From an uncultured Candidatus Saccharibacteria bacterium (GTDB lineage Bacteria > Patescibacteriota > Minisyncoccia > Phycocordibacterales > UBA12088), in contig CAZLUD010000001.1 of NCBI GenBank assembly GCA_964562615.1, positions 129,072-193,071 of the forward strand: 64,000 nt of DNA. Reading direction: 5' to 3'. Below are positions 4,017 through 63,366 of the stretch, one piece after another (position 1 is the stretch's first letter; the number at the start of each line of letters is the position of its first letter). The notes below the pieces were generated by a model, which saw only the letters and a list, made by a program, of their open reading frames with translations, did no database searches and was not told the DNA's origin. Both the position numbers and the translations under genes were made by a program.

Positions 4017-5201
4017 ATGGATATCGGTATAGGCAAAAAAATCGTCACTGGCATTGATATTGGCACCTCACACATAAAGGTGGTGATTGCTGAGTACTCA
4101 CAAAAAAACCCAAGTGCCATTCCACACATACTTGGTACCGGCGCCGCTCTCTCTAAAGGACTTCGTCACGGCTACATCATCAATAAAAGCGACACCGGAA
4201 GAAGTATACGCGCAGCGCTTCATCAAGCAGAAAAAGCAGCAGGCGTAAAAGTAAAAAAGGCATACCTTGCCGTAGGAGGCGTAGGGCTAGATGAGGTGCG
4301 ATCAAGCGGAGAAAGCATAACCTCACGAGCTGATCAAGAAGTCACCAGTCTTGATATCGCTCATGCGATTGAAGACGCAGAAGAACGAGTGGCGACAAAA
4401 ATCCAAAACAGAAAAATCCTTCACGTTATCCCGCTTCGATACAGACTTGATGGCGCGCCCGTGTTGGGTCGCCCACTTGGTATGAAGGGTAACAAGCTCG
4501 AAGCAGAAGTGCTCTTTATCACCAGCTTAGAGCAGCACCTTGAAGACCTCATCAGCACCATTGAAGACAGTGGTATTAGCGTCGTTGATGCAATGGCTAG
4601 TCCCCTTGCCGCAAGTTTTGTTACCCTTACCAAATCACAAAAGGTCGCGGGTGTTATGCTTGCAAATATAGGTGCTGAGACTGTATCAGTTGCGGTATTT
4701 GAAAATAATATTCCTATTTCATTAAAGGTATTCCCGATTGGCTCAACCGACATCACCAATGATATCGCCTTAGGGCTCAAAGTATCACTTGAAGAAGCCG
4801 AGCACCTAAAGCGTGGCACGCTTAGCAACTCAGAGCATCCACAAAAAAAGCTTGATCAAATAATCTCCGCTCGTCTTTCAGACATCTTTGACCTCATTGA
4901 TGCGCATCTTTCAAAAATTGGCAGAAACGGGCTTCTCCCTGCGGGCATTATCCTCACCGGCGGAGGCTCTGGTATCACCACTGTAGAAGATATGGCTCGC
5001 GCCACATTAAAGCTCCCGTCAAAGATTGGTCACATCATCGCGCAAAACGGCAATGGGGCTAAGTTTAAAGATTCATCATGGGCAGTATCATACGGACTCA
5101 CCATATGGGGCATGAGCGCTGACGAAGATTCGTTTGGCGTTGAGGTTGCAAAAAAAACCGGGAGCACGCTTATGTCATGGATAAAGCGCTTTTTGCCGTA
5201 G
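4017..5201 (+). CDS. ftsA: cell division protein FtsA
   Basis: GIDIGTSHIKVVIAE is the actin-like phosphate-1 motif. FtsA-like architecture, and it sits immediately upstream of ftsZ. Confidence 0.9.
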   Translation: MDIGIGKKIVTGIDIGTSHIKVVIAEYSQKNPSAIPHILGTGAALSKGLRHGYIINKSDTGRSIRAALHQAEKAAGVKVKKAYLAVGGVGLDEVRSSGESITSRADQEVTSLDIAHAIEDAEERVATKIQNRKILHVIPLRYRLDGAPVLGRPLGMKGNKLEAEVLFITSLEQHLEDLISTIEDSGISVVDAMASPLAASFVTLTKSQKVAGVMLANIGAETVSVAVFENNIPISLKVFPIGSTDITNDIALGLKVSLEEAEHLKRGTLSNSEHPQKKLDQIISARLSDIFDLIDAHLSKIGRNGLLPAGIILTGGGSGITTVEDMARATLKLPSKIGHIIAQNGNGAKFKDSSWAVSYGLTIWGMSADEDSFGVEVAKKTGSTLMSWIKRFLP

Positions 5202-5391
5202 TGGTCACGTGATAGAGCCATAGTATCAACTACATACTCCAACTGCTATACACAGACGCCGTACTGTGTCCTAATAATTTTTTATCTGTTTTGATTGAGT
5301 GACACTATAGAGTTGTGTCAAGTCTTTTCATCCCCACTCCATACTGGTACTATGTCGCTACGTTAATTTACGCCCGAATAGGCCCGAAACC

Positions 5392-6606
5392 ATGAAGCAA
5401 ATCCAACCAGAAGTAGAAGCATTCGCACGTATACGCGTTGTCGGCGTAGGCGGTTCAGGTAAAAACGCGACCAACCACATGATCGACTCCAAAGTTAAAG
5501 GAGTTGAATTTATTGCGGTTAATACAGACGCGCAAGACCTTCATCACTCTCTCGCTAAAAAGAAGATACACGTAGGAAAAAATCTTACCCGAGGACTAGG
5601 CGCAGGAGGTCATCCAGATATTGGCAGAAAAGCTGCTGAAGAAACCAAGGAAGAAATCCTCGATGCACTCAAAGGCTCTGACATGGTCTTTATTACCTGC
5701 GGTATGGGAGGCGGCACAGGCACGGGCGCAAGCGCGGTAGTCGCAAGCGCAGCAAAAGAAATTGGCGCCCTCACCGTGGGGGTGGTTACCAAACCATTTT
5801 CTTTTGAAGGCCAACAGCGCATGCGCATGGCAGAGCAAGGTATCGAAAACCTCAAGAAAGAAGTGGATGCGCTCATTGTGATTCCTAACGACCGACTCCT
5901 TGCCATTGTCGACAGAGACACCAGCGTCAAGAACGCGTTTGCCCTTTGTGACGACATCCTCCTACGAGCAGTTGAAGGTATCTCAGACCTTATTACCATG
6001 CCGGGTATCGTCAACGTAGACTTTGCCGACATTAAGTCAGTTATGGAAAACGCCGGAAGCGCACTCATGGGTGTGGGTATTGCCTCAGGAGAAAAGCGCG
6101 CAGAAGAAGCAGCACATCAAGCTATCAACTCTCCCCTTCTTGAAGTATCTATTTCTGGTGCTAAAGGAGTACTCTTTGCTATTGCAGGAGGTGATGACCT
6201 AGGTATGCTTGAAGTACAAGACGCGGCAAGAGTTATCACCGAATCTATCGACCCAAATGCTCGCGTTATCTTTGGTGCTATTAAAGACGAGAAGCTAAAG
6301 AAGAATGAAATAAAGGTAACCGTTATCGCCACCGGCTTCCCTGAGGGCATGCTCTCAAAGAGCTCTTCTCTCTTTGGTATTTCTGCACCACGCAGAGTAC
6401 AGCACGAGGAGGAGCGCGAAGAGAGAAGCGTTATACACAACTCTCTTGGTGATGTTGCCTCAATGGTAAAGCCTCGCATAGAAAACAAGGAGGAGATTAC
6501 AAATGTCATCCCAGAAGAAAAAAAGGAGAATACCAATTCCACTGATGATGACGATGATGATTGGGGTGCGGTTCCAGCATTTCTTCGAAGAAGCAAGATA
6601 AAGTAG
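5392..6606 (+). CDS. ftsZ: cell division GTPase FtsZ
   Basis: GVGGSGKNA and [10 protein letters not shown] tubulin signature motifs. Acidic/Asp-rich C-terminal tail. Confidence 0.95.
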
Positions 6607-8999: not shown

Positions 9000-9233
9000 C
9001 TACTCGCCTACATATTCAAACCGAGGTACTTCCACATCATTTACCACTACGATCTCTGTAAACATGGACAATGGACGTATCCAAAGTGTCCCCTCGGCGT
9101 ATGTTGCAGAGGCGTACTTTGCTGTATATACCACTAATGGCTCCATTGTCTCACTATGCCTCCCAACACCAATAACCTCATACAAATTCCCTTTATAGTG
9201 TCTATACGTCCCCTTCAATAGGTCAAACTCCAT
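9000..9233 (-). CDS. DUF1653 family protein
   Basis: YRHYKGNLYEVIGVGRHSETMEPLVVY ... WIRPLSMF matches the DUF1653 consensus. Confidence 0.6.
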   Translation of the reverse strand: MEFDLLKGTYRHYKGNLYEVIGVGRHSETMEPLVVYTAKYASATYAEGTLWIRPLSMFTEIVVVNDVEVPRFEYVGE

Positions 9234-9234
9234 A

Positions 9235-9657
9235 TTACTTGAATTCATAGTTAGTGGGATTAACATTTTCCTTTAGGAGATTCTGCAACGGAACAAAAAT
9301 ATTTTCTGGAAATTTATTCCACTCAAACCAGTCCCATCCCTCACACTTATGTGGTTCCATTATCTGAACCTCACCAGAATCATACATTGCTCTGACGTAG
9401 CACGTAATATAATGCTTGTTCTCTTCTGCGAAGATATCGTTTGTAAACGTAAACTTTTCAATTTGTTTTATAGTTATTCCAACCTCCTCCATCACTTCCC
9501 TTTTTGCACAATCTTCTATACTCTCACCAAACTCAAGATGACCCCCAGGGAATGCCCACGACCCCTCACCATGCGCGCCCTTTCTTTTACCAAGTAACAC
9601 CTTGCCATCCTTAATGACTATGACACCAACTCCTACTTTTGGTCGTTGCTCATTCAT
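9235..9657 (-). CDS. NUDIX hydrolase
   Basis: Nudix box GGHLEFGESIEDCAKREVMEEVGI (Gx5Ex7REUxEExGU). Confidence 0.85.
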   Translation of the reverse strand: MNEQRPKVGVGVIVIKDGKVLLGKRKGAHGEGSWAFPGGHLEFGESIEDCAKREVMEEVGITIKQIEKFTFTNDIFAEENKHYITCYVRAMYDSGEVQIMEPHKCEGWDWFEWNKFPENIFVPLQNLLKENVNPTNYEFK

Positions 9658-9772
9658 TGTTACGCTCTTTATTGTTGCAAGTAATTCCTACTAATTTTAT
9701 TTATATTATAAATCATATTTCCCTTTCATGAGTTTAATATCGTGAGTCTCGTGGTATACCTTTTACTTCTGC

Positions 9773-9859
9773 GGAGAGGGGGAGATTCGAACTCCCGATA
9801 CCGGTAAGGGTATGCCGGTTTTCGAAACCGGTGCACTAGACCAACTATGCGACCTCTCC
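9773..9859 (-). tRNA. tRNA-Ser (anticodon CGA)
   Basis: Folded manually. Acceptor ggagagg/cctctcc. Anticodon stem ccggt/accgg with loop ttcgaaa. Long variable arm. T-loop ttcgaat. 87 nt, CCA not encoded. Confidence 0.8.
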
Positions 9860-9990
9860 AGTGACTCCTTAAGAAAATAGCATGATATAGCCCAAGACAC
9901 ATCTCCCCTTACCTCTTCTTTTATTTTATGGTATATTTGCCGTGCCGCTTTGGCGGCATTTTATATAGCAATATTTTACAGAATACACTT

Positions 9991-10062
9991 GGCCCTATCG
10001 TCTAACGGTTAGGACAGCGCCCTTTCACGGCGTAAATCGGGGTTCGATTCCCCGTAGGGTCA
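9991..10062 (+). tRNA. tRNA-Glu (anticodon TTC)
   Basis: Acceptor ggcccta/tagggtc. D-arm tcgtctaacggttaggaca. Anticodon loop ctttcac. T-arm cgggg-ttcgatt-ccccg. Confidence 0.8.
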
Positions 10063-10113
10063 CAAATCGGCCGACCGAATACGCGTATGCGTTTCGGTCG
10101 TTGCCGTTTGTAG

Positions 10114-10133
10114 GCACTACGGGGAATCGAACG
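10114..10133. repeat. inverted partial copy of the tRNA-Glu 3' end (T-loop plus acceptor)
   Basis: gcactacggggaatcgaacg is the reverse complement of cgttcgattccccgtagtgc. Compare the tRNA 3' end ggttcgattccccgtagggtc. Confidence 0.7.
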
Positions 10134-10277
10134 ACGGAGGCGGTATACAAGAACCGAAGCGAAGCGTAGGTTGCTTGTCGCCGAGTCGCGACCTAATTTT
10201 TACGACCAAAGGGAGATAAAAATGGAAGTACTCTTTGTGGTGCGACCAGCGTGCTTAGCCATAATGGCTTAGCAAAA

Positions 10278-10302
10278 GCGGGTCGATTCCCCGTAGGGCA
10301 CA
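10278..10302. repeat. direct partial copy of the tRNA-Glu 3' end (att-like)
   Basis: gcgggtcgattccccgtagggcaca versus tRNA-Glu cggggttcgattccccgtagggtca. No complete cloverleaf can be folded upstream. Confidence 0.7.
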
Positions 10303-10321
10303 TAAAAGAACTTCCTAGGCA

Positions 10322-11074
10322 ATGAAAGTAGAATCACATGCAGTAATTGAAACTAGCAATCTATCACGGATAATATTTTCCGAGCCAATTTTGTATACAT
10401 CACCTTCAAAAGGTGAGGTAAAAATTATGAATCACGACAAAGACAGCAACATCCTTGTTGTGATTATGAATATGGACGTTCAGCACCGCGATGTAGCAAC
10501 ATTCGAATCTGAACGAGAGCTAGTACGAGTCGTTAGCCGTTTAAGCTGGGTACATAATCTTGCAATTGAAAAATATCGTATAACCGGCTATCAATATTCA
10601 GAAACAGCAAATCAAACAAATGCTGTTGTTCTTGCCACAACACTACATATCAATGCGTCAATTTCTGTAATAAAAACAGTTGGGAGGGACGGGGTGGAAA
10701 AACTTAGTACTACATTATCAAAAAACTATACTGAAGAACTAGATTCACTATTGTCTAAGTGGCGTGATGCTATTCGTCAAGAATCATCAATGATTCGGTT
10801 AGTACTTATGTATCAAATACTTGAGTCACTAGCTGGCAGAGTCCGAAGTAAGGTTGAAAAAATGATACGTGACAAAGACCCGCATATTGAATTGCGCAAT
10901 ACTGGCATAAAAAATGATCAGGTTGTAAGTGTATACACTTACCTACGCGACTGTATTCATTTAAAACCAGAAAATCCTCAGTTTCCTTTTCATGAGGTAG
11001 AAGCACATGTCATTCCCATGCAGGAACTTGTAAGAAAAGTACTTAAAGAAAAGTTTACAGACTTACCAGAGTGA
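10322..11074 (+). CDS. hypothetical protein
   Basis: 250-aa ORF immediately after the tRNA-fragment region; no recognisable domain. Confidence 0.4.
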   Translation: MKVESHAVIETSNLSRIIFSEPILYTSPSKGEVKIMNHDKDSNILVVIMNMDVQHRDVATFESERELVRVVSRLSWVHNLAIEKYRITGYQYSETANQTNAVVLATTLHINASISVIKTVGRDGVEKLSTTLSKNYTEELDSLLSKWRDAIRQESSMIRLVLMYQILESLAGRVRSKVEKMIRDKDPHIELRNTGIKNDQVVSVYTYLRDCIHLKPENPQFPFHEVEAHVIPMQELVRKVLKEKFTDLPE

Positions 11075-11091
11075 TACACAGTAACACACGT

Positions 11092-11553
11092 CTACAACGT
11101 AATCTCACAAAATGGGGAGGCATTGAGACTTACCGTATCATGACTAAGATCAAGCGCTCGCATCCATGTTGGTGTTATTTTGAACATGACATATTGCTCT
11201 GAAGCAATTTGTAGTAGCGGCGGCCAAAAATCTGGGTGGCTAGTTACCGCTTTTGCAAATTCATTTTGAAGCCACTCTCGCTCTTTGGCATCAGTTATAG
11301 GAAATGCTTCACCATCAAGTTGTACTAGCATTTTTTTATGCTCCCATACCGAACCGCTTATAGCTGGGTTAGCTGAGAGAAATTTTTCTTTATACGATCC
11401 TGCGTGCGTTACAAAGTAAAATGAGCAGGCATCATCTACCACGTATAGCACCACAGAAGAAGATGGCTTGTCGCCATTAACTGTCGCTATACTCATCACA
11501 AACTGGGTTTTTAAAAAGTCTATTACCGCTTGTTTTTTGTCTTCTTGTTCCAT
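11092..11553 (-). CDS. pyridoxamine 5'-phosphate oxidase-like FMN-binding split-barrel protein
   Basis: KKQAVIDFLKTQFVMSIATVNGDKPSSSVVLYV ... FYFVT pattern is typical of the PNPOx / general stress protein 26 family. Confidence 0.5.
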   Translation of the reverse strand: MEQEDKKQAVIDFLKTQFVMSIATVNGDKPSSSVVLYVVDDACSFYFVTHAGSYKEKFLSANPAISGSVWEHKKMLVQLDGEAFPITDAKEREWLQNEFAKAVTSHPDFWPPLLQIASEQYVMFKITPTWMRALDLSHDTVSLNASPFCEITL

Positions 11554-11592
11554 GAGATAATAGTACCTCAAAAAGGGCTTTAGTGTATAGAC

Positions 11593-12228
11593 TTAGACAT
11601 CACCACGTGCGATATCCACCTCCCTACCCAATATACGGCTTGCAATACGCTCAAGCGCATCAACGCTATATGCACCTGGTCGTATAAGGGTTATATGCTC
11701 GTTGTTGATTGAAATAACGGTTGAAGGCGCTCCTGCGCACACCCCACCATCTACCACATACCCAATATCTGGAAACTGCTCTTGTATATCAGCAGGTGTT
11801 GAAAGTGGTGTCTGACCTGAAAGATTAGCGCTTGTTGAAGTAATTGGTGTGTCGCAATACTTAAAAAACGCCTCCCTAAATGGATGATCAGGCATACGAA
11901 ATCCGATATACGGTGAGCGGGTAACCGTGCCCAGTAGCGCGCTATCTCCACATGGAATAAGTAGTGATAGTGCGCCTGGCCAACACTCAGAAAGTAACGC
12001 ACTGGCAAACGAAGAAAGGGTGACATAGCGTGAAAGCATAGCAACATCACGCACCATAACTAAAAAATTCTTTTCTGGCGGTGATTGTTTAAGGGAAAAT
12101 AATTGTGATACCGCGGTAGCATTTGTTGCATCCACCCCAAGCCCATATAGGGTGTCGGTAGGATAGGCTATAATCCCGCCTTGCTTTATTATTGCCGCTG
12201 CTTCCCTTGCTTGTGTCTCTATGTCCAT
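11593..12228 (-). CDS. tsaC: L-threonylcarbamoyladenylate synthase (YrdC/Sua5 family)
   Basis: GGIIAYPTDTLYGLGVDATNATAVSQLFSLKQSPPEKNFLVMV is the YrdC signature. Confidence 0.85.
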   Translation of the reverse strand: MDIETQAREAAAIIKQGGIIAYPTDTLYGLGVDATNATAVSQLFSLKQSPPEKNFLVMVRDVAMLSRYVTLSSFASALLSECWPGALSLLIPCGDSALLGTVTRSPYIGFRMPDHPFREAFFKYCDTPITSTSANLSGQTPLSTPADIQEQFPDIGYVVDGGVCAGAPSTVISINNEHITLIRPGAYSVDALERIASRILGREVDIARGDV

Positions 12229-12288
12229 ACGGTAGAGCGTAGCGCATCTGCTTCATTTTTGCTAGAATCGCATACAGTGTATTTATTT

Positions 12289-12364
12289 GCGCGGTTAGCT
12301 CAGTTGGTAGAGCATCCCCTTGACGTGGGGAGGGTCAGAGGTTCGAGTCCTCTATCGCGCACCA
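12289..12364 (+). tRNA. tRNA-Val (anticodon GAC)
   Basis: Acceptor gcgcggt/atcgcgc. Anticodon stem tcccc/gggga with loop ttgacgt. T-arm ggttcgagtcc. Encoded CCA. Confidence 0.85.
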
Positions 12365-12537
12365 CAGAGAGTACTTCAAGAAATATAGTCGCTTTGCTCC
12401 TTATTTCTTTGGTCGCACAAAAACAAAAGGAACATAAGTGAGTAGGTAAATTGTGCTACATATACGAAAAACATTGACTAATTAGTAGTAGGCTGTACTA
12501 TCCACCAGCACCCCAACCACGTGGGTGTAAGGAGGAA

Positions 12538-55262: not shown

Positions 55263-57806
55263 TTACTTTGTATCTTGATGCGTCATATAAATCGATCGGT
55301 ACGGATTAGTTTCTACTGCCGTTGCATGAAGTAGCTCAATCTGCGATCTGATCGTAGCCATTATTTCATCATCAGTCTCAGTAGTAAACCTAAGTGGGGC
55401 GCCAATAACTACCGACACTACCCCTTGGCGTGGGATGATTTCATTCTTTTTTAATATGTACGAAAGCCCATAATGAGCAATCGGAACGACTGGCACCTTC
55501 AGTGCGCGAATAAGATGCGCGGTTCCTCGCATAAACGGAAGCATAGCAGCATCATCACCTCGTCTACCCTCAGGAAACATAAGTAGTGATTCTCCACCAT
55601 CTACCACACGACCAGCGTATTGCAGCGATTTTGAAAACCCATCTTGTTGACGCAACAGAAACGCCCCTGCTCCAAATCGCACAAGCAAAAGAATACCTCG
55701 ATACCACATACGCATATACACTGACGCCTGCGGTCGGTGGTAATAGGTATCTGCAGTAGGAGTCGCAAGAAGATATCGATATCTATATGGTAGCGCTCGT
55801 ATGATAACCGAATGATCAGCACTGCTTACATGATTGGTAACAATCATGATAGGTTCCCTTGTAGTAGGAATATGCGCTCTCCCTACAACCTTTAGTGTTA
55901 TAAAGCACGCACTTATCGCGCTTTCAAGTAATGATAAAAGCACGCGAAGCGCTCTACCCATTGGAGTATGGATACCACGAAACCCTACCGCTCTGTGTGT
56001 AGTCTTTTTTCTTTCTTGTATATACCTCTCTATATCAGCAACAGTGGTATGTGAGGTTATCATTTCTTCTGCTAACTCGTAGTTATATTCACGAGCAATT
56101 GCTGCAAGAAGTTCTACCCTTCCTAATGAATCAAGTCCCACCTCACTTATGAGTGTTTGCTGAGGGGCAATAGTAGAGGCGTCCTTACCAGTAACTGATG
56201 CGAGTAAATCGTACAATCTAGACTGTCGTGACGAGCTAGACGAGCCACCTGGGGTAGTGCTAGTAACAAACTTTTTTACCAATGTTCGTTTAGTTTTGAG
56301 AGTGGTCGTTTTAGGAAATTCACGCTCATGCCAAAGACTATATCCTTGTATACGCATCGCGCTTGACAGTACATCATTTGCTCGCTCAACCACATCCTTT
56401 GCATCAGTAGTACCGTCCGCAAGTATCACTACCGCATGTATTGCTTCACCATGTTCGCGCGGCACACCAACCACGCACGCCTCCTTTACTCGTGAATCTT
56501 CCAAGAGCACACGCTCTATATCATCAGGAAATATATTGATGCCTGATGAGGAAAGGATCATTTCTTTTACTCTGCCGCTTACAACAAGATTGCCGTCATC
56601 GTCCATATAGCCGATGTCGCCTGTTTTAAACCACCCATCGCTCGTAAAGGCATCACGGGTAGCCTGTTCATGGTGATAGTACCCGGCAAAGACATTAGGA
56701 CCTTGTACCTCTATTTCTCCTTCTTTTGAAAACCGAACCGACACGTGTGGAAATTCTTTACCAACCGTACCCCACGCTTTATTGGTCGGAGAGGTAGCCG
56801 CAATCACGGGAGATGTTTCAGTGAGTCCATATCCCTCGTATATGGATATACCAACATTTCTCCAGAATGTAGCAATAGAAGGTGACAGTGGCGCACCACC
56901 AGATACCATGTACTCAAAATGAGATCCAAATGCCTTATGGATTTTTCTAAACAACATCTTTTTAACAAATAACGGTGACGTACTCGCTCGCTCGCTAAGG
57001 CGCATAAGCGTGTCGTATGTACCCGCCTCTTTTGCTCTTGCTAGCACTCCTGCATACATCGCCTCGATAAGGCGTGGTACCACCAGCATGTGTGTTATCT
57101 TTTCTTTTTTAAGAAGCACAAACAATGCTGACGCAATAATTGCGCTTGGATATACAATTGTACCCCCCAGCAAAAGCGGCACCCACAACCCCCCTACCTG
57201 CTCAAACATATGTGACAGTGGAAGCGTAGAGAGAACACGAACCCTCTTTCCAAATGAAAAATGAGTTGCCGCACCGCAAACATTTGCAGTTACATTTTTG
57301 TGGGTAAGCATAACCCCTTTTGGGTCACCAGTGGTGCCAGAAGTGTACACAATGTACGCAAGATCACTTTCCTTACATACCGAAGCAGGAATACCGATAC
57401 ATGACTCGATACAATATAAAAAATCTTCGAGCACATAGGTGGGTACCCCTATGTTCAGTAATCGATACTTACTTTTAAGCACCAATCGCGCGTGCGCCCT
57501 GGTGACAATAACCTCTGCAGAAGTACTGGTTGCTTGTACATCTATAGGGACAACTACCGCACCGATCGATAGAGCACCAAGACTTGCAACTACCCACTCG
57601 ATACCATTTAATCCCCACACCACAATCGTGTCTCCTTTATGTACACCTTGCGCGACATACCATGCGCTCGCTTTTTGTATCAGCGTATGCAATGTGGCAT
57701 ACGTATATCGAAAGGTTCGATACCCGTTATGCACCACAATCGCTTCATCCATACGCGATGCGTGTAGCGAAAGTATGTCTACAAGCGTCTTTGGATTTTG
57801 ATACAT
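55263..57806 (-). CDS. tri-domain fusion: acyl-CoA/acyl-ACP synthetase (AMP-binding) - acyl carrier protein - 1-acylglycerol-3-phosphate acyltransferase (PlsC)
   Basis: YTSGTTGDPKGV (AMP-binding). GLDSLGRVELLAAIARE (ACP Ser-attachment DSL). NHVSSAD (HX4D acyltransferase) and FPEGRRG. Confidence 0.8.
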   Translation of the reverse strand: MYQNPKTLVDILSLHASRMDEAIVVHNGYRTFRYTYATLHTLIQKASAWYVAQGVHKGDTIVVWGLNGIEWVVASLGALSIGAVVVPIDVQATSTSAEVIVTRAHARLVLKSKYRLLNIGVPTYVLEDFLYCIESCIGIPASVCKESDLAYIVYTSGTTGDPKGVMLTHKNVTANVCGAATHFSFGKRVRVLSTLPLSHMFEQVGGLWVPLLLGGTIVYPSAIIASALFVLLKKEKITHMLVVPRLIEAMYAGVLARAKEAGTYDTLMRLSERASTSPLFVKKMLFRKIHKAFGSHFEYMVSGGAPLSPSIATFWRNVGISIYEGYGLTETSPVIAATSPTNKAWGTVGKEFPHVSVRFSKEGEIEVQGPNVFAGYYHHEQATRDAFTSDGWFKTGDIGYMDDDGNLVVSGRVKEMILSSSGINIFPDDIERVLLEDSRVKEACVVGVPREHGEAIHAVVILADGTTDAKDVVERANDVLSSAMRIQGYSLWHEREFPKTTTLKTKRTLVKKFVTSTTPGGSSSSSRQSRLYDLLASVTGKDASTIAPQQTLISEVGLDSLGRVELLAAIAREYNYELAEEMITSHTTVADIERYIQERKKTTHRAVGFRGIHTPMGRALRVLLSLLESAISACFITLKVVGRAHIPTTREPIMIVTNHVSSADHSVIIRALPYRYRYLLATPTADTYYHRPQASVYMRMWYRGILLLVRFGAGAFLLRQQDGFSKSLQYAGRVVDGGESLLMFPEGRRGDDAAMLPFMRGTAHLIRALKVPVVPIAHYGLSYILKKNEIIPRQGVVSVVIGAPLRFTTETDDEIMATIRSQIELLHATAVETNPYRSIYMTHQDTK

Positions 57807-57820
57807 ATACGAGTAGTGTG

Positions 57821-58132
57821 TTAAGTAAGTAATACTACCGCTGTGGCATATTCACCATCATGACTTATTGATACACTCGTAATCGTATCATCGCCCACTC
57901 GCAAAAAGGGCGCACCACTTTCTTCGTGGCAAACCTCAAGCAGTAACCAGTCAATCTTCTTACCTATCGCCTTACAATACGCCTCCTTAACGGCAAGGTA
58001 TCCACCGGCGCGCTTTGTATCATTATGTAATGACCGCATTTCAGCATCAGTAAATAGACGCGCGCACTCTTCAGTGCTTGAAAGTAAGCGTTCTACCCGA
58101 CGTATGCTGACTAAATCTATTCCTACCCGCAT
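57821..58132 (-). CDS. acpS: holo-ACP synthase (4'-phosphopantetheinyl transferase)
   Basis: MRVGIDLVSIRRVERL and AVKEAYCKAIG ... W.DIE pattern; 103 aa; immediately upstream of the ACP-containing fusion. Confidence 0.7.
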   Translation of the reverse strand: MRVGIDLVSIRRVERLLSSTEECARLFTDAEMRSLHNDTKRAGGYLAVKEAYCKAIGKKIDWLLLEVCHEESGAPFLRVGDDTITSVSISHDGEYATAVVLLT

Positions 58133-58173
58133 TGGTAGTAGTATACCAGAGCTGTGCTATGCTTTTTGACATG

Positions 58174-58620
58174 GCGATTATTCATAACAAAAAGGCATCA
58201 TTTAACTTCGAACTCTTGGAGAGATTCGAGGCTGGTATAGAGCTTTTTGGCCACGAAGTAAAGGCAATAAAAGCCGGAAAAGCACATCTTGAGGGCGCGC
58301 GGGTACTAGTACGAGGGGGTGAAGTATATCTTGTTGGCGCTACTATATTTGCCTACCAAGAAAGCAATAGCCCTAAAACGTATAATCCCATGCGCAACAG
58401 AAGACTGCTTCTCCATAAAAAAGAAATGCTCCAGATAGCAAGTGCGGAGGCCACCAAAGGGTTGACAATAGTGCCAATTTCGATGTATAATAAAGGTAGA
58501 AAATTGAAGCTTGAGATTGCTATTGCTCGCGGAAAAAAGTTGACAGATAAGCGAGAGACAATAAAGAAACGCGATACCAATAGAGATGTTGAACGCGAGA
58601 CTAAGTTCAAACTTAAATAG
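58174..58620 (+). CDS. smpB: SsrA-binding protein SmpB
   Basis: NKKASFNFELLERFEAGIELFGHEVKAIKAGKAHLEGARVLVRGGEVYLVGA aligns with the SmpB core. Basic C-terminal tail. Confidence 0.9.
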   Translation, partial: AIIHNKKASFNFELLERFEAGIELFGHEVKAIKAGKAHLEGARVLVRGGEVYLVGATIFAYQESNSPKTYNPMRNRRLLLHKKEMLQIASAEATKGLTIVPISMYNKGRKLKLEIAIARGKKLTDKRETIKKRDTNRDVERETKFKLK

Positions 58621-58710: not shown

Positions 58711-59091
58711 GGGGATGATTGGCCTCGACAGTGAGTATGTGTTGCATAGTGTGCGAGTTCGTGTGAGGTGACACGGTAAAAACATCTCAACCAATACGTG
58801 CTACAAAACTTCGCACGGCAATTCTTTCACCTTTCCAGATGAAGGATTTTGCACTCGCTGTAGCCTAAGGCTCGCGACATCCTACAGAGTATTGTCTGAT
58901 AGCTTTGTAACGGTGTAATACCATCAGAACCGCAGAAAGGGTGCATCGCCTTATCTGTTAAATAATGATGCTATATGGTATCGGCTTTTGACGAATTTTC
59001 TATCGACACCACGAACCAACAAATTCGCCAAGACTTCGTAGACTCACTATGCACTCCTCTCTGGATGCGGGTTCGATTCCCGCCATCTCCA
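58711..59091 (+). ncRNA. ssrA: tmRNA (SsrA), standard one-piece
   Basis: 5' GGGGATGATTGGCCTCGACAG (tRNA-like half). Candidate tag ORF GCA-ATT ... GCACTCGCTGTAGCCTAA encodes AILSPFQMKDFALAVA-stop. 3' GGATGCGGGTTCGATTCCCGCCATCTCCA, whose acceptor pairs with the 5' GGGGATG. Confidence 0.8.
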
Positions 59092-59093
59092 CA

Positions 59094-59573: not shown

Positions 59574-60101
59574 ATGAAATCACCGACCATCGAATCTGGT
59601 TCCTATGTTATAAGACCGTTTAAGACGAGTGATGCCGAATTGTGGCAAACGTGGGATATTGATCATGAAGTGCAAGCATTTATGCCGGAGCCGTTTAATG
59701 AACCACAAGAAATTAAGGAGCAGTACGCATACATAAAAGCATGTGATGCTGATGAAGAAGGATACTACTGGTCAATTGAAACGAAGGACGGAGTCACAAT
59801 TGGTACCATCGCACTCACAGAATACAATGACTACCATGGCGTTGCTAATCTCGGTATTGTTATCGGAGATAAAAACTATTGGGGCAAAGGGGTTGCAACG
59901 GAGACCATCACTACTCTTGTCGACTATGCATTTACGAATCTAAATCTTTTCTATATTAGCGCTGAAGTTGAGGAAGGAAATATTCCGATGATGAATGTCC
60001 TAGAAAAAGTCGGGTTCAAACAAGATGGTTTATTTGAATCAGCTCGGGTAAAAAATGAAAAACGAATCAATGTTCACCATTTCAGTATTGTTAAGTGGTA
60101 A
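59574..60101 (+). CDS. GNAT acetyltransferase, RimL/RimJ-like
   Basis: SYVIRPFKTSD ... GVANLGIVIGDKNYWGKGVATE ... NIPMMNVLEKVGF matches the RimL-type GNAT. Confidence 0.8.
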   Translation: MKSPTIESGSYVIRPFKTSDAELWQTWDIDHEVQAFMPEPFNEPQEIKEQYAYIKACDADEEGYYWSIETKDGVTIGTIALTEYNDYHGVANLGIVIGDKNYWGKGVATETITTLVDYAFTNLNLFYISAEVEEGNIPMMNVLEKVGFKQDGLFESARVKNEKRINVHHFSIVKW

Positions 60102-60604
60102 TGAATATTTATATGAAAAGCATAAAAATAACCCCCATTAAACAACGAGACGCTAGTGCCTGCGGACCTACCAGTATTGAAATGACTCTGAAATACTTTG
60201 ACGTACCACATACAGTCGCGGATATTACTAGGATAACTAACTATAAAAAAGAAGGTGGCATATACAACAAACAACTGGTGGGCGTGCTACAACACTATGG
60301 CCTTAAGACAAAAGTTTTGAAGAATACCTCTTGGGAACAACTGATGGGACTAAATACCAAAGATTCTGTGATAATTCTTTCTTGGATGCTTGATGGCTAC
60401 ATTGGACACCTTAGTGTTTTGGATAATGTTGATAAAGACCATATCTATCTCGCAGAACCTACAACTGGAGAAATATTAAGGATAGGTAAGATAAAGTTTC
60501 TCAGACTCTGGTTAGACTACGAGGCTAAAGCTGAAGTACCGTTATTCCCCGAATCAAAGTCTGACATTCAACTGAGGTGGTTGTGTATTGCATCGAAACC
60601 ATAA
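60095..60604 (+). CDS. stand-alone peptidase C39-like cysteine protease
   Basis: IKQRDASACGPTSIEMTLKYFDV (Gln oxyanion plus Cys nucleophile as in C39), a later GHLSVL His and an Asp. 7-nt overlap with the GNAT gene. Confidence 0.6.
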   Translation: MVMNIYMKSIKITPIKQRDASACGPTSIEMTLKYFDVPHTVADITRITNYKKEGGIYNKQLVGVLQHYGLKTKVLKNTSWEQLMGLNTKDSVIILSWMLDGYIGHLSVLDNVDKDHIYLAEPTTGEILRIGKIKFLRLWLDYEAKAEVPLFPESKSDIQLRWLCIASKP

Positions 60605-60661: not shown

Positions 60662-61891
60662 TCACTTTTTCAGACTTACCCAATGCAGTACTTTCATGAG
60701 GATATGGAAGACCAGGCTGGTCGTCATATCATCACGATCGAGTGCTGGACTAAGTTCGACGACATCCATGCCAACAACCTGGTTGTGCTCAATAACCGCA
60801 CGTAACAACTTCAGCAGCGCCTGCGGGGTCATGCCGAGCGGTACAGGAGTACCAGTTCCAGGAGCGAAAGATGGGTCGAGTACATCAACGTCGAAACTGA
60901 TATAGCACTTCCTCCCTTTTGGCAGCCTAGTTGCAAGCACATTAGCCAGTCCTTCTTCGATGACGACCTGAGTTGTTGTCTGACACCTTTCTTCCCCAAG
61001 GGGAGCACCGGCAAAACCACGCACTCCAAACTGGAGCAAATGGGCAGTTGGGTTTTCATGCACAACCCGTCGCATGACGTTGCCATGATGATGCTCTGAA
61101 CCAACTTCCCACTCCCCCATGTCTGTGTGCGCATCCAGATGGATGATGACTATCTCTCCGTGGACTTCTGTACACGCACGAATGAGTGGCGCAGAGATTG
61201 AGTGGTCTCCCCCAATGAAGACAGGAAATGTACCACTCCGATGTGACAATAAAGCGCCCCGATAGCAACGCTCATAGACAGTCGCAAGAGATTCCCCCGT
61301 TCGATACGCAACATTGCCCAGATCTCCAAACGGAACTCCTTCAAGGATCACAGTCCCTAGGTCGGCGTTATACCAACCACGGTTTCTTCTGGTAAAGATA
61401 TCCCGCTCGTAAGCCAGAAACTTCGCCGAAACTTCACGGAGTCGATCCGGACCAAAGCGAGTACCGGGATTGCCGGTCGCCGCCTGGTCTAGACATACCC
61501 CCGCCACAACGATTGTTCCTTCTTCGAGACTACACACATCGACTGCAGGCGAGTACACGAACGGTGTTCGCGCACTAACAAATAAGGTTTCCCTATCGAC
61601 AACCAGCGGCTCTTCAGCTTTTCCGTCTACTACTTCAATTAGAAAGAAAGCTTCAGCAAACGCAGCAAGAATCAATAGAAATTCCTCGTACGGTTCACCC
61701 CCAGCCACTCCAAGCTCCATCGCTGCTTCATGCGTACTTTTAACTACACGGAAAGCTACGAGGATCTTCAAGGACTCCTCAGTCAGAGAAAGCCGATGAC
61801 CAGTCCGAGTGTTGTGTAGCACAACCCCATTCTCGCCATCTTCACTTTCAAGCATGAGGTGTCTTGATACAACATACGAATCAGTACTCAT
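60662..61891 (-). CDS. arginase/agmatinase-family (ureohydrolase) enzyme with N-terminal RRE/PqqD-like domain: candidate peptide arginase
   Basis: GGDHSIS, IIHLDAHTDM, SFDVDVLDPSFAPGTGTP and MDVVELSP ureohydrolase Mn-binding motifs. The N-terminal 90 aa, VVLHNTRTGHRLSLTEESLKILVAF, is PqqD-like. ATGA start/stop overlap with the upstream gene. Confidence 0.75.
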   Translation of the reverse strand: MSTDSYVVSRHLMLESEDGENGVVLHNTRTGHRLSLTEESLKILVAFRVVKSTHEAAMELGVAGGEPYEEFLLILAAFAEAFFLIEVVDGKAEEPLVVDRETLFVSARTPFVYSPAVDVCSLEEGTIVVAGVCLDQAATGNPGTRFGPDRLREVSAKFLAYERDIFTRRNRGWYNADLGTVILEGVPFGDLGNVAYRTGESLATVYERCYRGALLSHRSGTFPVFIGGDHSISAPLIRACTEVHGEIVIIHLDAHTDMGEWEVGSEHHHGNVMRRVVHENPTAHLLQFGVRGFAGAPLGEERCQTTTQVVIEEGLANVLATRLPKGRKCYISFDVDVLDPSFAPGTGTPVPLGMTPQALLKLLRAVIEHNQVVGMDVVELSPALDRDDMTTSLVFHILMKVLHWVSLKK

Positions 61892-62997
61892 GACTCTCCT
61901 CTCTTGTGCCCACAGTATGGGCACGTATGCCGTTTTCTGAATTTGCGGAAGTTGATGTCGTAGGTACGAAAATCCAACTCCGCAACCTTATTGGTCATCG
62001 TTGGTTTCGAGAAACCAGTAACGACCTTCACCGCATCCAATACATGATAGTTTGCGGTGATCGCGCAAATAGCAGCGATATTTCCACCCTTAATGTGCGT
62101 ATTAGTAACTGCCAATTGCTGATACTCAGCTCGATGAAGCTGTTTATTAAGCGCGTGCTCATAGCAGTACCAACACGCTGATTCTCCAGGAATGACCGTT
62201 GGTCCGATAAAGCTTAAGTGTCCATCATACCCACCGCAGAGAATATGAGGCACTTGTAGCTCAAAGCAAACTTCCGTGACAATCCGATTAACCACATCCG
62301 TACTCGGATCATCCGCACAGGAGATAATCAAACTGCTACCTCGCATCCCCACAAGGCAATCTTGTGGTGACACAACTTGCTGTGCAATACCCTGGACTGA
62401 GATTTCAGCATCAATGGAACAGAGTTTTCGTTCCGCCACTTGAACCTTTAGGGATCCGACGTCATCAACATTGAACAAACACTGTCTGTTCAAGTTTGAT
62501 ATTTCTACTACGTCTGGATCGATGAATGTAAAGTTACGGGCACCAGCCAGAGCAAGACCTTGGGCAACCCAAGTACCAATCCCTCCCAAACCGATTATCG
62601 CAACCCGCGCTCTATGTAAACGCTCTTGCATCACTTCGCGGGATTGGGTTCTTGTCTCAAACTCCGCAAAGAAATTACGCTGGGTTGCAAATTTATCTTG
62701 GTCAATAACGGCAGGATGCTTTTTGGTAGCCAGTACCCGACTCTTTTGGAGTACAGATACCAGTCGCCGCACCTCTATGATTGGGAGGCCTGCTTTCCTT
62801 GCTATCTCTTCGATTGAATGCAAACCATCAAAATATTGCAAGCAACCAAAAGCCTCTTTGTTAAGTTGAAACGGCAGGACAACACTACTTGCATTGAAGA
62901 GAAAGTTCACTTCATAGACATCTCGAACACCTCTGTACAAGACAGAGATACTGTCTTTGACCCGTGGAAACACTGCATGGACTCCTTCCGTAGACAT
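61888..62997 (-). CDS. ThiF/MoeB/MccB-like E1 adenylyltransferase with N-terminal RRE-like peptide-binding domain and C-terminal Cys4 zinc site
   Basis: ARVAIIGLGGIGTWVAQGLALAGARNFTFIDPDVVEISNLNRQ (E1 nucleotide-binding). CWYC ... CPYC. The N-terminal ~110 aa, FNASSVVLPFQLNKEAF ... SIEEIARKAGLPIIEVRRLV, is winged-helix/RRE-like. Confidence 0.8.
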   Translation of the reverse strand: MSTEGVHAVFPRVKDSISVLYRGVRDVYEVNFLFNASSVVLPFQLNKEAFGCLQYFDGLHSIEEIARKAGLPIIEVRRLVSVLQKSRVLATKKHPAVIDQDKFATQRNFFAEFETRTQSREVMQERLHRARVAIIGLGGIGTWVAQGLALAGARNFTFIDPDVVEISNLNRQCLFNVDDVGSLKVQVAERKLCSIDAEISVQGIAQQVVSPQDCLVGMRGSSLIISCADDPSTDVVNRIVTEVCFELQVPHILCGGYDGHLSFIGPTVIPGESACWYCYEHALNKQLHRAEYQQLAVTNTHIKGGNIAAICAITANYHVLDAVKVVTGFSKPTMTNKVAELDFRTYDINFRKFRKRHTCPYCGHKRGES

Positions 62998-63082: not shown

Positions 63083-63111
63083 TTGACAAAGATAACAAGT
63101 GCAACTATTCT
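63083..63111 (+). promoter_or_regulatory. sigma70-like promoter for the small peptide gene
   Basis: TTGACA at 63083-63088, 17-nt spacer, TATTCT at 63106-63111. Confidence 0.4.
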
Positions 63112-63164
63112 TCAAATAAACAAGCAAGTGGGTTGCTTGTTTCAACCCTCATCAGGAGAATCCT

Positions 63165-63311
63165 GTGCAACAGAGTGTTCCATCGATAAAGACTGGACCA
63201 AAGAATAATTCGAAAGACATGGCAGTCGATCTCAAGAAAGTGGTAATCAAGCGACTGCAACGTCGACACAGTGATGTCTACATGCGTGGACTGCGTCGTC
63301 CCCGTGCGTAA
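63165..63311 (+). CDS. 48-aa Arg/Lys-rich small peptide, candidate RiPP precursor (GTG start)
   Basis: RBS aggaga 5 nt upstream of the GTG start. MQQSVPSIKTGPKNNSKDMAVDLKKVVIKRLQRRHSDVYMRGLRRPRA. Promoter upstream and a strong terminator 25 nt downstream. Divergent from the enzyme genes. Confidence 0.35.
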   Translation: MQQSVPSIKTGPKNNSKDMAVDLKKVVIKRLQRRHSDVYMRGLRRPRA

Positions 63312-63335
63312 TTGGCCAATAGTCTCTGGTCAAGG

Positions 63336-63366
63336 GCGGAAACCAGATGTGGTTTCCGCCTTTTTC
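63336..63366 (+). terminator. rho-independent terminator
   Basis: ggcggaaacc-agatgt-ggtttccgcc followed by tttttc. Confidence 0.8.

Follow-up and report, generated by a model that had tools for sequence, protein, structure and literature searches.

Known peptide arginases either belong to family PF12640 and lack a recognition element for ribosomally synthesised and post-translationally modified peptides (RiPP recognition element, RRE) or are represented by the single PF00491 case, KgrD. The PF12640 enzymes (OspR and others) convert peptidyl arginine to ornithine (PMC10028609). KgrD, from enteropeptin biosynthesis, is a Mn2+-dependent PF00491 arginase that performs the same conversion on a RiPP precursor, after which the ornithine is further modified; its action depends on a thiomorpholine that a radical-SAM enzyme has to make beforehand (PMC12703449). 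Arginase-made ornithine is also N-acylated in the selidamides (PMC12703449). Among RRE-bearing ThiF (E1-like) enzymes, IndF closes a ring between the C-terminal carboxylate and a Trp indole, and GrcB joins a Glu side chain to a Cys thiol as a thiolactone (PMC12596934, PMC12150305). Of the 27,400 RRE-ThiF fusions counted in the IndF study, most are uncharacterised (PMC12150305). Here, we describe a gene from an uncultured Candidatus Saccharibacteria bacterium (GCA_964562615.1, contig CAZLUD010000001.1) that joins an N-terminal RRE to an arginase-family domain and lies next to an RRE-ThiF gene and a small Arg-rich open reading frame (ORF). All positions refer to the window, the 64,000-nucleotide stretch that was analysed (contig positions 129,072 to 193,071, forward strand). 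We consider it probable, though well short of certain, that the gene encodes a leader-guided peptide ureohydrolase, that is, a peptide arginase on an agmatinase-type PF00491 scaffold, within a compact RiPP-like cassette.

The window arginase resembles the OspR-type enzymes (PF12640: OspR, FlmR, OhkR, PbsE; PDB 8BRP) in its ureohydrolase superfamily fold, its binuclear metal site and the reaction proposed for it, Arg to Orn plus urea on a leader-bearing precursor. In contrast to the window enzyme, OspR has a dimerisation insert and no described RRE (the term is absent from PMC10028609), and PbsE carries TPR repeats. 8BRP was absent among the best 60 sequence matches of the arginase listed. The window enzyme matched only PF00491, with the motifs GGDHS, DAHTD and DVDVLDP, and is not a PF12640 member, though it probably works like one. 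PF00491 is the family it has in common with KgrD, and action on peptidyl Arg, described for KgrD, is proposed here. Compared by description rather than by sequence, the window cassette differs from that of KgrD in having no radical-SAM gene, an RRE-ThiF partner, an RRE of its own and an unrelated precursor.

The window E1 enzyme shares with MccB, PaaA, GrcB and IndF an N-terminal RRE followed by an E1 adenylation domain with Zn-type CxxC pairs, and it probably lies in an unannotated cluster of the RRE-ThiF fusions counted in the IndF study. As in the IndF system, the C-terminal end of the precursor is conserved, which suggests activation of the C-terminal carboxylate (PMC12596934). However, the arginase partner and the ...RRxRA precursor are not among the described systems of this group. 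The MccB-type RRE-E1 is also common to microcin C, but the window precursor does not end in Asn.

The RRE-arginase fusion

The gene and its domains were located as follows.
60662..61891, minus strand: RRE-ureohydrolase fusion gene, putative peptide arginase (ORF, translation, AlphaFold2 model)
61622..61891, minus strand: N-terminal RRE (PqqD-like winged-helix) domain, residues 1-90 (AlphaFold2 model, structural matches)
60689..61513, minus strand: arginase-family (PF00491) catalytic domain, residues 127-401 (Pfam, alignment, Foldseek)

The ORF runs on the minus strand from the ATG at 61891 to the stop at 60662 and encodes 409 aa, as does the public gene call on the identical contig. Residues 1 to about 115 matched no Pfam or NCBIfam model. 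The sequence-only reading had called the N-terminal segment of about 90 aa RRE-like, and the part it quoted (VVLHNTRTGHRLSLTEESLKILVAF...EAAMELGV) corresponds to residues 23-62. The extension was preserved in about 75 database clusters of about 400-415 aa each, with the family consensus YVLS..L.LE....G..VI.NT.TG.RL....E..KIL..F..P.....AA..LG. In an AlphaFold2 model of residues 1-112, built from a 35-sequence alignment, residues 1-90 were ordered (predicted local distance difference test, pLDDT, 82-94 as 10-residue block means). The predicted topology (E5-8, E12-18, E22-27, E33-36, H38-46, H53-60, H66-80) has the winged helix-turn-helix pattern of RREs, a three-stranded antiparallel sheet followed by three helices. 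The best structural matches of residues 1-90 were all RREs and are given with entry and score.
TigE, 8vpo, 11.6
MibB, 5ehk, 9.2
MccB, 3h5a, 8.7
TbiB1 with leader peptide, 5v1u, 8.6
NisB, 4wd9, 8.3
PbtF RRE domain, 8t19, 8.2
TfuB1, 6jx3, 8.0

A profile of the domain matched residues 5-94 of TigE (E 2e-4) and TbiB1 (E 0.11). The PqqD model PF05402 gave no match for the window protein and a weak match in two of the 35 family members (best E 0.009). Since the fold model, the RRE structural matches and the sequence-profile matches agree, the extension is predicted to be an RRE-type domain and not a disordered tail, which bears out the sequence-only reading on this point.

The profile was also run against 1.84 billion representative proteins and retrieved 112 at E <= 1e-3, many of them arginase fusions of about 400 aa matched at their N-terminus, together with stand-alone proteins of about 90-120 aa. 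Six of the ten matches checked with Pfam had non-arginase architectures: four were radical-SAM/SPASM proteins (three with an MA-type peptidase domain too), one was a fusion with an MA-type peptidase only, and one was a methyltransferase fusion. In these relatives, the RRE-like domain was placed N-terminally or internally, and such fusions are typical RiPP-maturase architectures. The closest non-arginase relatives of the domain (P0265, P0269 and P0339) are large proteins with MA-type peptidase and radical-SAM/SPASM domains, unannotated in the library and RiPP-like.

The catalytic domain was matched by PF00491 over residues 127-401 (E 5e-63; 213.6 bits vs a cut-off of 22). All six His/Asp ligands of the binuclear metal centre were present (H230 in GGDHS; D253, H255 and D257 in DAHTD; D334 and D336 in DVDVLDP) and were invariant in an alignment of 44 homologues. 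Because the ligands and the three motifs are invariant across homologues this diverse, selection for catalysis is indicated. A domain that has lost catalysis and serves as a scaffold to present the peptide to the E1 enzyme, like the inactive E1-like 'C' proteins of azoline-forming systems, is thus extremely unlikely.

The full-length AlphaFold2 model (pLDDT 91.4; predicted template modelling score 0.81) showed the three-layer alpha/beta/alpha fold. Its top Foldseek matches were the agmatinases 1wog, 7lox and 7lba (probability 1.00), and proclavaminate amidinohydrolase was also among the nearest structures of the catalytic domain. The nearest sequences were likewise agmatinases, guanidine and guanidino-acid hydrolases, and proclavaminate amidinohydrolase (E 1e-34 to 1e-31). 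Agmatinase/SpeB and the guanidino-acid hydrolases (1WOG, 7LBA, 3NIO, 1GQ6) are nearest in sequence (E 1e-31 to 1e-34) and in fold (Foldseek E 3e-26, TM 0.85 on target) and have the same metal ligands. However, these are single-domain proteins of about 300 aa that act on free small molecules, whereas the window enzyme adds an RRE plus linker of about 115 aa and a RiPP-type context. The score against the agmatinase equivalog TIGR01230 passed narrowly (182.2 vs a cut-off of 174.3), and that against the SpeB subfamily model NF002564 was below its cut-off (177 vs 302). From sequence and model, the chemistry is almost certainly hydrolysis of a guanidino group, but the scaffold by itself is insufficient to name the substrate.

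The candidate precursor, the E1 partner and the accessory genes

The genes surrounding the arginase gene were the following.
61888..62997, minus strand: ThiF/E1-like adenylyltransferase, 369 aa, with an N-terminal RRE-like domain at about residues 10-100 (Pfam, PDB search, hhalign)
63083-63111, plus strand: promoter-like site TTGACA-17-TATTCT (consensus match only; the regional number of such sites was not above that in shuffled sequences)
63154-63159, plus strand: ribosome-binding site AGGAGA, 5 nt ahead of the GTG (consensus match only)
63165..63311, plus strand: candidate precursor gene, 48 aa, MQQSVPSIKTGPKNNSKDMAVDLKKVVIKRLQRRHSDVYMRGLRRPRA, GTG start (conserved beside ThiF/arginase in related loci)
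63332..63363, plus strand: terminator-like 14-bp stem-loop, 20 nt past the precursor stop (hairpin)
60095..60604, plus strand: stand-alone C39-type cysteine peptidase, candidate leader peptidase (Pfam Peptidase_C39, 4e-11)
59574..60101, plus strand: GNAT (Acetyltransf_3) N-acetyltransferase, 175 aa (Pfam, 2e-28)

The stop codon of the upstream ThiF gene and the ATG of the arginase gene share the sequence ATGA (61888-61891), and the two genes are translationally coupled. Pfam ThiF matched residues 121-359 of the E1 enzyme. Its best PDB sequence matches were MccB (2e-27) and PaaA (2.5e-19), both classic RiPP adenylyltransferases with an RRE, and the alignment began at residue 107. The motifs GxGxxG and DxDxVxxSNLxRQ and two CxxC pairs were intact, as read from the translation. 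The N-terminal 105 or so residues aligned with the arginase RRE over 80 columns (hhalign probability 94.5%, E 8e-8). Together with MccB and PaaA as best PDB matches, this supports the earlier statement that the neighbouring E1 enzyme carries an RRE as well. The ThiF family comprised about 74 clusters, followed by an E-value gap from 1e-48 to 1e-16, and its list had 29 longest-contig sizes in common with that of the arginase family, a proxy for shared contigs. One protein of 775 aa (P0259) was a natural single-chain ThiF-RRE-arginase fusion; it may be a true fusion, or the stop may have been lost at the ATGA junction.

The candidate precursor gene is divergent from the ThiF gene. Its product has the leader motif K-V-x-I-x-x-L and the C-terminal core R-x-L-R-R-P-R-A, and it ends in ...YMRGLRRPRA. 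A small ORF ending in ...[YC]MRG[LIV]RR[RP]RA-stop adjoined the ThiF or the arginase gene, in either orientation, in all related loci with sufficient flank; the C-terminal pattern across loci was R-x-[LIV]-R-R-[RP]-R-A-stop. Across 13 loci, the last eight residues were fixed or nearly fixed, while the codons for the fixed residues varied freely (Arg: CGT, CGC, CGG, CGA, AGA, AGG; Ala: GCG, GCC, GCA, GCT). Selection on the peptide is indicated because the conserved C-terminal residues are encoded by varied synonymous codons.

A profile search retrieved 50 called precursor homologues of 30-80 aa, all unannotated and termed 'hypothetical', and the peptides had no Pfam or NCBIfam match. Invariant features were the leader motif K-[VL]-x-[IV]-x-P-L, Arg at positions -8, -5, -4 and -2, and Ala at -1. 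No residue ever followed this Ala, which ended 12 of the 12 aligned locus precursors and all 31 of the database precursors that were read. Gly -7 and Asp -13/-12 were common but not invariant. A double-glycine cleavage site at R-G/L was considered and found to be unsupported, since some members have Thr or Asn in place of the Gly. The conserved Asp -13/-12 was likewise rejected as the E1 adenylation site, being Asn in P0249.

The C39 gene is convergent with the arginase gene (public gene call from 60113, 163 aa). The Q-x5-C motif and a downstream His/Asp were read from its translation, and the protein had no sequence match in the PDB. It recurred beside the arginase gene in most loci (L003-5, L089-100, L107). 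The GNAT gene recurred in several lineages (L009, L089, L090, L097-100, L105 and L106), with 63-85% identity. Where the arginase was only 31-44% identical, the GNAT was 63-67% identical; in L009 and L097-L099, the latter range stood beside 31-48% for ThiF and arginase in the same loci. Judged by sequence, this strong conservation points to either a tightly constrained substrate or a recent transfer of the gene. Among proteins of solved structure, those nearest to the GNAT were SpeG spermidine/diamine N-acetyltransferases (about 1e-10) and PA3944, both of which acetylate primary alkyl amines.

Related loci were collected by a metagenome scan with the single arginase protein (13 loci) and a genome-contig scan with the family alignment. 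Among the matches listed for the latter, most were ordinary agmatinases; the informative ones were L009, a Saccharibacteria metagenome-assembled genome (MAG), and L037 (Lewinella). ThiF was next to the arginase gene in every related locus with upstream flank (L001-L006, L009, L089-L094, L096, L097, L099, L105-L107). The cassette loci ranged from 31 to 66% GC, in genomes mostly from the Candidate Phyla Radiation (CPR)/Patescibacteria, and the source names of the arginase homologues place the window in this group as well, nearest to Candidatus Kaiserbacteria. The cassette thus consists of the precursor, the RRE-ThiF/E1 enzyme, the RRE-arginase and, as accessory parts, the C39 peptidase and/or the GNAT. 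It has the make-up by which RiPP clusters are generally recognised, with a short precursor of variable N-terminal leader and conserved core, RRE-bearing maturases and a candidate leader peptidase. The precursor gene and the links to C39 and GNAT go beyond the sequence-only reading. Two more distant proteobacterial homologues of about 400 aa (P0085 and P0087) had neither ThiF nor precursor and were set aside as a different context.

Several loci departed from this arrangement. In L105, a distant cassette (4454-5821, 9093-12493), an M16 peptidase stood upstream of ThiF in place of C39. There, the GNAT gene was followed by two aminoacyl-tRNA synthetase genes (class Ib; class IIb, Asp/Asn/Lys type) with a PemK-toxin gene between them, which may be coincidence in a small genome. 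RRE-arginase fusions without ThiF or ...RRxRA peptide were found in L037 (3980-5278, Lewinella MAG), L007 (2234-3421) and L008. Their neighbours encode ketoacyl-acyl carrier protein (ACP) synthases, ACP, a FabA-like dehydratase, a membrane HExxH peptidase, a lipid-A-type acyltransferase, an AMP-ligase and a phosphopantetheinyl transferase (PPTase). This fatty-acyl-type cluster may be a ribosomal lipopeptide pathway with ornithine as the acylation site.

Elsewhere in the window, the SmpB gene adjoins the transfer-messenger RNA gene (58132-58620 and 58711-59092), with the tag peptide ATKLRTAILSPFQMKDFALAVA. An 847-aa AMP-binding/carrier-protein/acyltransferase fusion (55263-57806, minus strand) lies directly downstream of a holo-ACP synthase gene (57821-58132, minus strand).

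Proposed pathway and alternative explanations

Most likely, the enzyme converts arginines of the Arg-rich precursor to ornithine and does not serve polyamine synthesis. In the proposed pathway, the arginase RRE would bind the leader strand K-[VL]-x-[IV]-x-P-L of the 30-80-aa precursor, placing the invariant core R-x-[LIV]-R-R-[RP]-R-A near the binuclear metal site, where one or more core Arg guanidino groups would be hydrolysed to give ornithine and urea. Through its own, homologous RRE, the MccB/PaaA-like E1 enzyme would dock on the same leader and then adenylate a carboxylate. The C-terminal Ala is the likeliest site because the C-terminus is invariant and known RRE-ThiF enzymes cyclise through an adenylated carboxylate. 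The freed ornithine delta-amine could act as the intramolecular nucleophile and close a C-terminal macrolactam. The C39 peptidase would cut off the leader, and the SpeG-like GNAT may acetylate a remaining primary amine, as tailoring or self-protection. The E1 chemistry is drawn from analogy, and the lactam step, in which an ornithine amine is joined to the C-terminus, is proposed as a tentative possibility.

Several observations weigh against this pathway. The enzymes nearest to the catalytic domain in sequence and in fold are agmatinases and guanidino-acid hydrolases that act on free substrates, and no active-site change specifically opening the pocket to a peptide was identified in the arginase. 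The precursor has no canonical Gly-Gly cleavage motif, with Gly -7 replaced by Thr or Asn in some members, and its invariant arginines could act in target binding rather than as substrates. The SpeG-like GNAT fits a polyamine context too. C39 and GNAT are each missing from some loci, and no exporter was conserved in the cassette among the loci compared. The earlier proposal of a peptide substrate is supported by the RRE and the gene context; by sequence the catalytic domain is still placed among the agmatinases, and activity on a peptide is put forward as the probable role.

An alternative is a microcin-C-like 'Trojan horse', in which the MccB-like enzyme adds a nucleotide to the precursor C-terminus, the GNAT provides immunity and the arginase tailors a cationic carrier or processes a guanidino intermediate. 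The family Acetyltransf_3, to which the GNAT belongs, includes RimL and the C-terminal domain of MccE, both microcin C immunity enzymes. Among proteins of solved structure, MccB is nearest to the ThiF protein (2e-27), and the precursor is a short peptide whose C-terminus is strictly fixed. Yet every precursor ends in Ala and none in Asn. The established MccB mechanism requires the Asn side-chain amide to form a succinimide and then the N-P bond (PMC4010828). Equivalents of MccC, MccD or MccF were not conserved in the cassette loci, and the closest solved relatives of the GNAT are of SpeG type, with MccE not among them. We regard this explanation as unlikely.

The arginase might instead hydrolyse a guanidino group other than a core Arg side chain as such. 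Agmatine or arginine could be ligated to the E1-activated C-terminus (peptidyl-agmatine then yielding peptidyl-putrescine), or Arg could attack the adenylated C-terminus to form an acyl-guanidine ring. E1-like enzymes often use N-nucleophiles on an adenylated carboxylate (PMC12596934), and both the pass at the agmatinase equivalog cut-off (182 vs 174 bits) and the agmatinases and proclavaminate amidinohydrolase as nearest structures agree with this explanation. However, no arginine decarboxylase or other agmatine source was linked to the cassette in the loci compared, and the four invariant arginines in the 8-residue core are the simplest substrates. Such guanidino chemistry seems to us improbable, about as much so as a microcin-C-like system.

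Still less probable, and in our judgement very unlikely, is an ordinary agmatinase that makes putrescine and is accompanied by a SpeG-like acetyltransferase, its winged-helix domain being a regulatory or oligomerisation module. The top structural and sequence relatives of that domain are RREs and not DNA-binding domains, and the score against the SpeB model NF002564 is 177 vs a cut-off of 302. The pairing or fusion with RRE-ThiF and an Arg-rich peptide gene holds over genomes of 31-66% GC. Placement in a polyamine operon, which would have spoken against a peptide substrate, was found for none of the arginase genes: no polyamine biosynthesis (speA/speE-type) genes were adjacent in any locus, and all loci with sufficient flank pair the gene with an RRE-bearing E1 enzyme and an Arg-rich small ORF.

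Novelty and significance of the cassette

The literature search turned up no description of an RRE-arginase fusion or of a ThiF-arginase RiPP cassette, and queries on related topics gave either no papers or unrelated ones. Two 2025 reviews of ThiF-like RiPP chemistry make no mention of arginase, agmatinase, ornithine or lactam, and the RRE-Finder paper names neither arginase nor agmatinase. The enzyme folds and the RiPP logic are known; the fusion, the enzyme pairing and the precursor family are new, and the host group is unusual.

If the leader-guided peptide arginase is confirmed, it would represent a second, independent route by which ureohydrolases of primary metabolism have been recruited into peptide tailoring, and it would serve as a portable tool for Arg-to-Orn conversion that can be addressed through the leader. 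That the arginase is obligately paired with an MccB/PaaA-like E1 enzyme suggests a new ThiF chemistry, one in which the amine nucleophile is supplied by an enzyme. A more far-reaching reading, which we hold to be rather doubtful, is that the cassette defines an unrecognised RiPP class widespread in CPR/Patescibacteria, in which the RRE-PF00491 enzyme unmasks ornithine amines in the RxLRRxRA tail and the RRE-ThiF enzyme joins the adenylated C-terminal Ala to one of these amines. If so, neither an ornithine macrolactam made by a ThiF enzyme nor an arginase fused to an RRE would have a precedent, and ultra-small symbiotic bacteria would gain a cationic cyclic peptide. Four small genes and a 30-55-aa substrate make the proposal open to direct testing. 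The cassette is also among the few conserved natural-product-like loci of CPR bacteria, organisms with minimal genomes whose host interactions are poorly understood.

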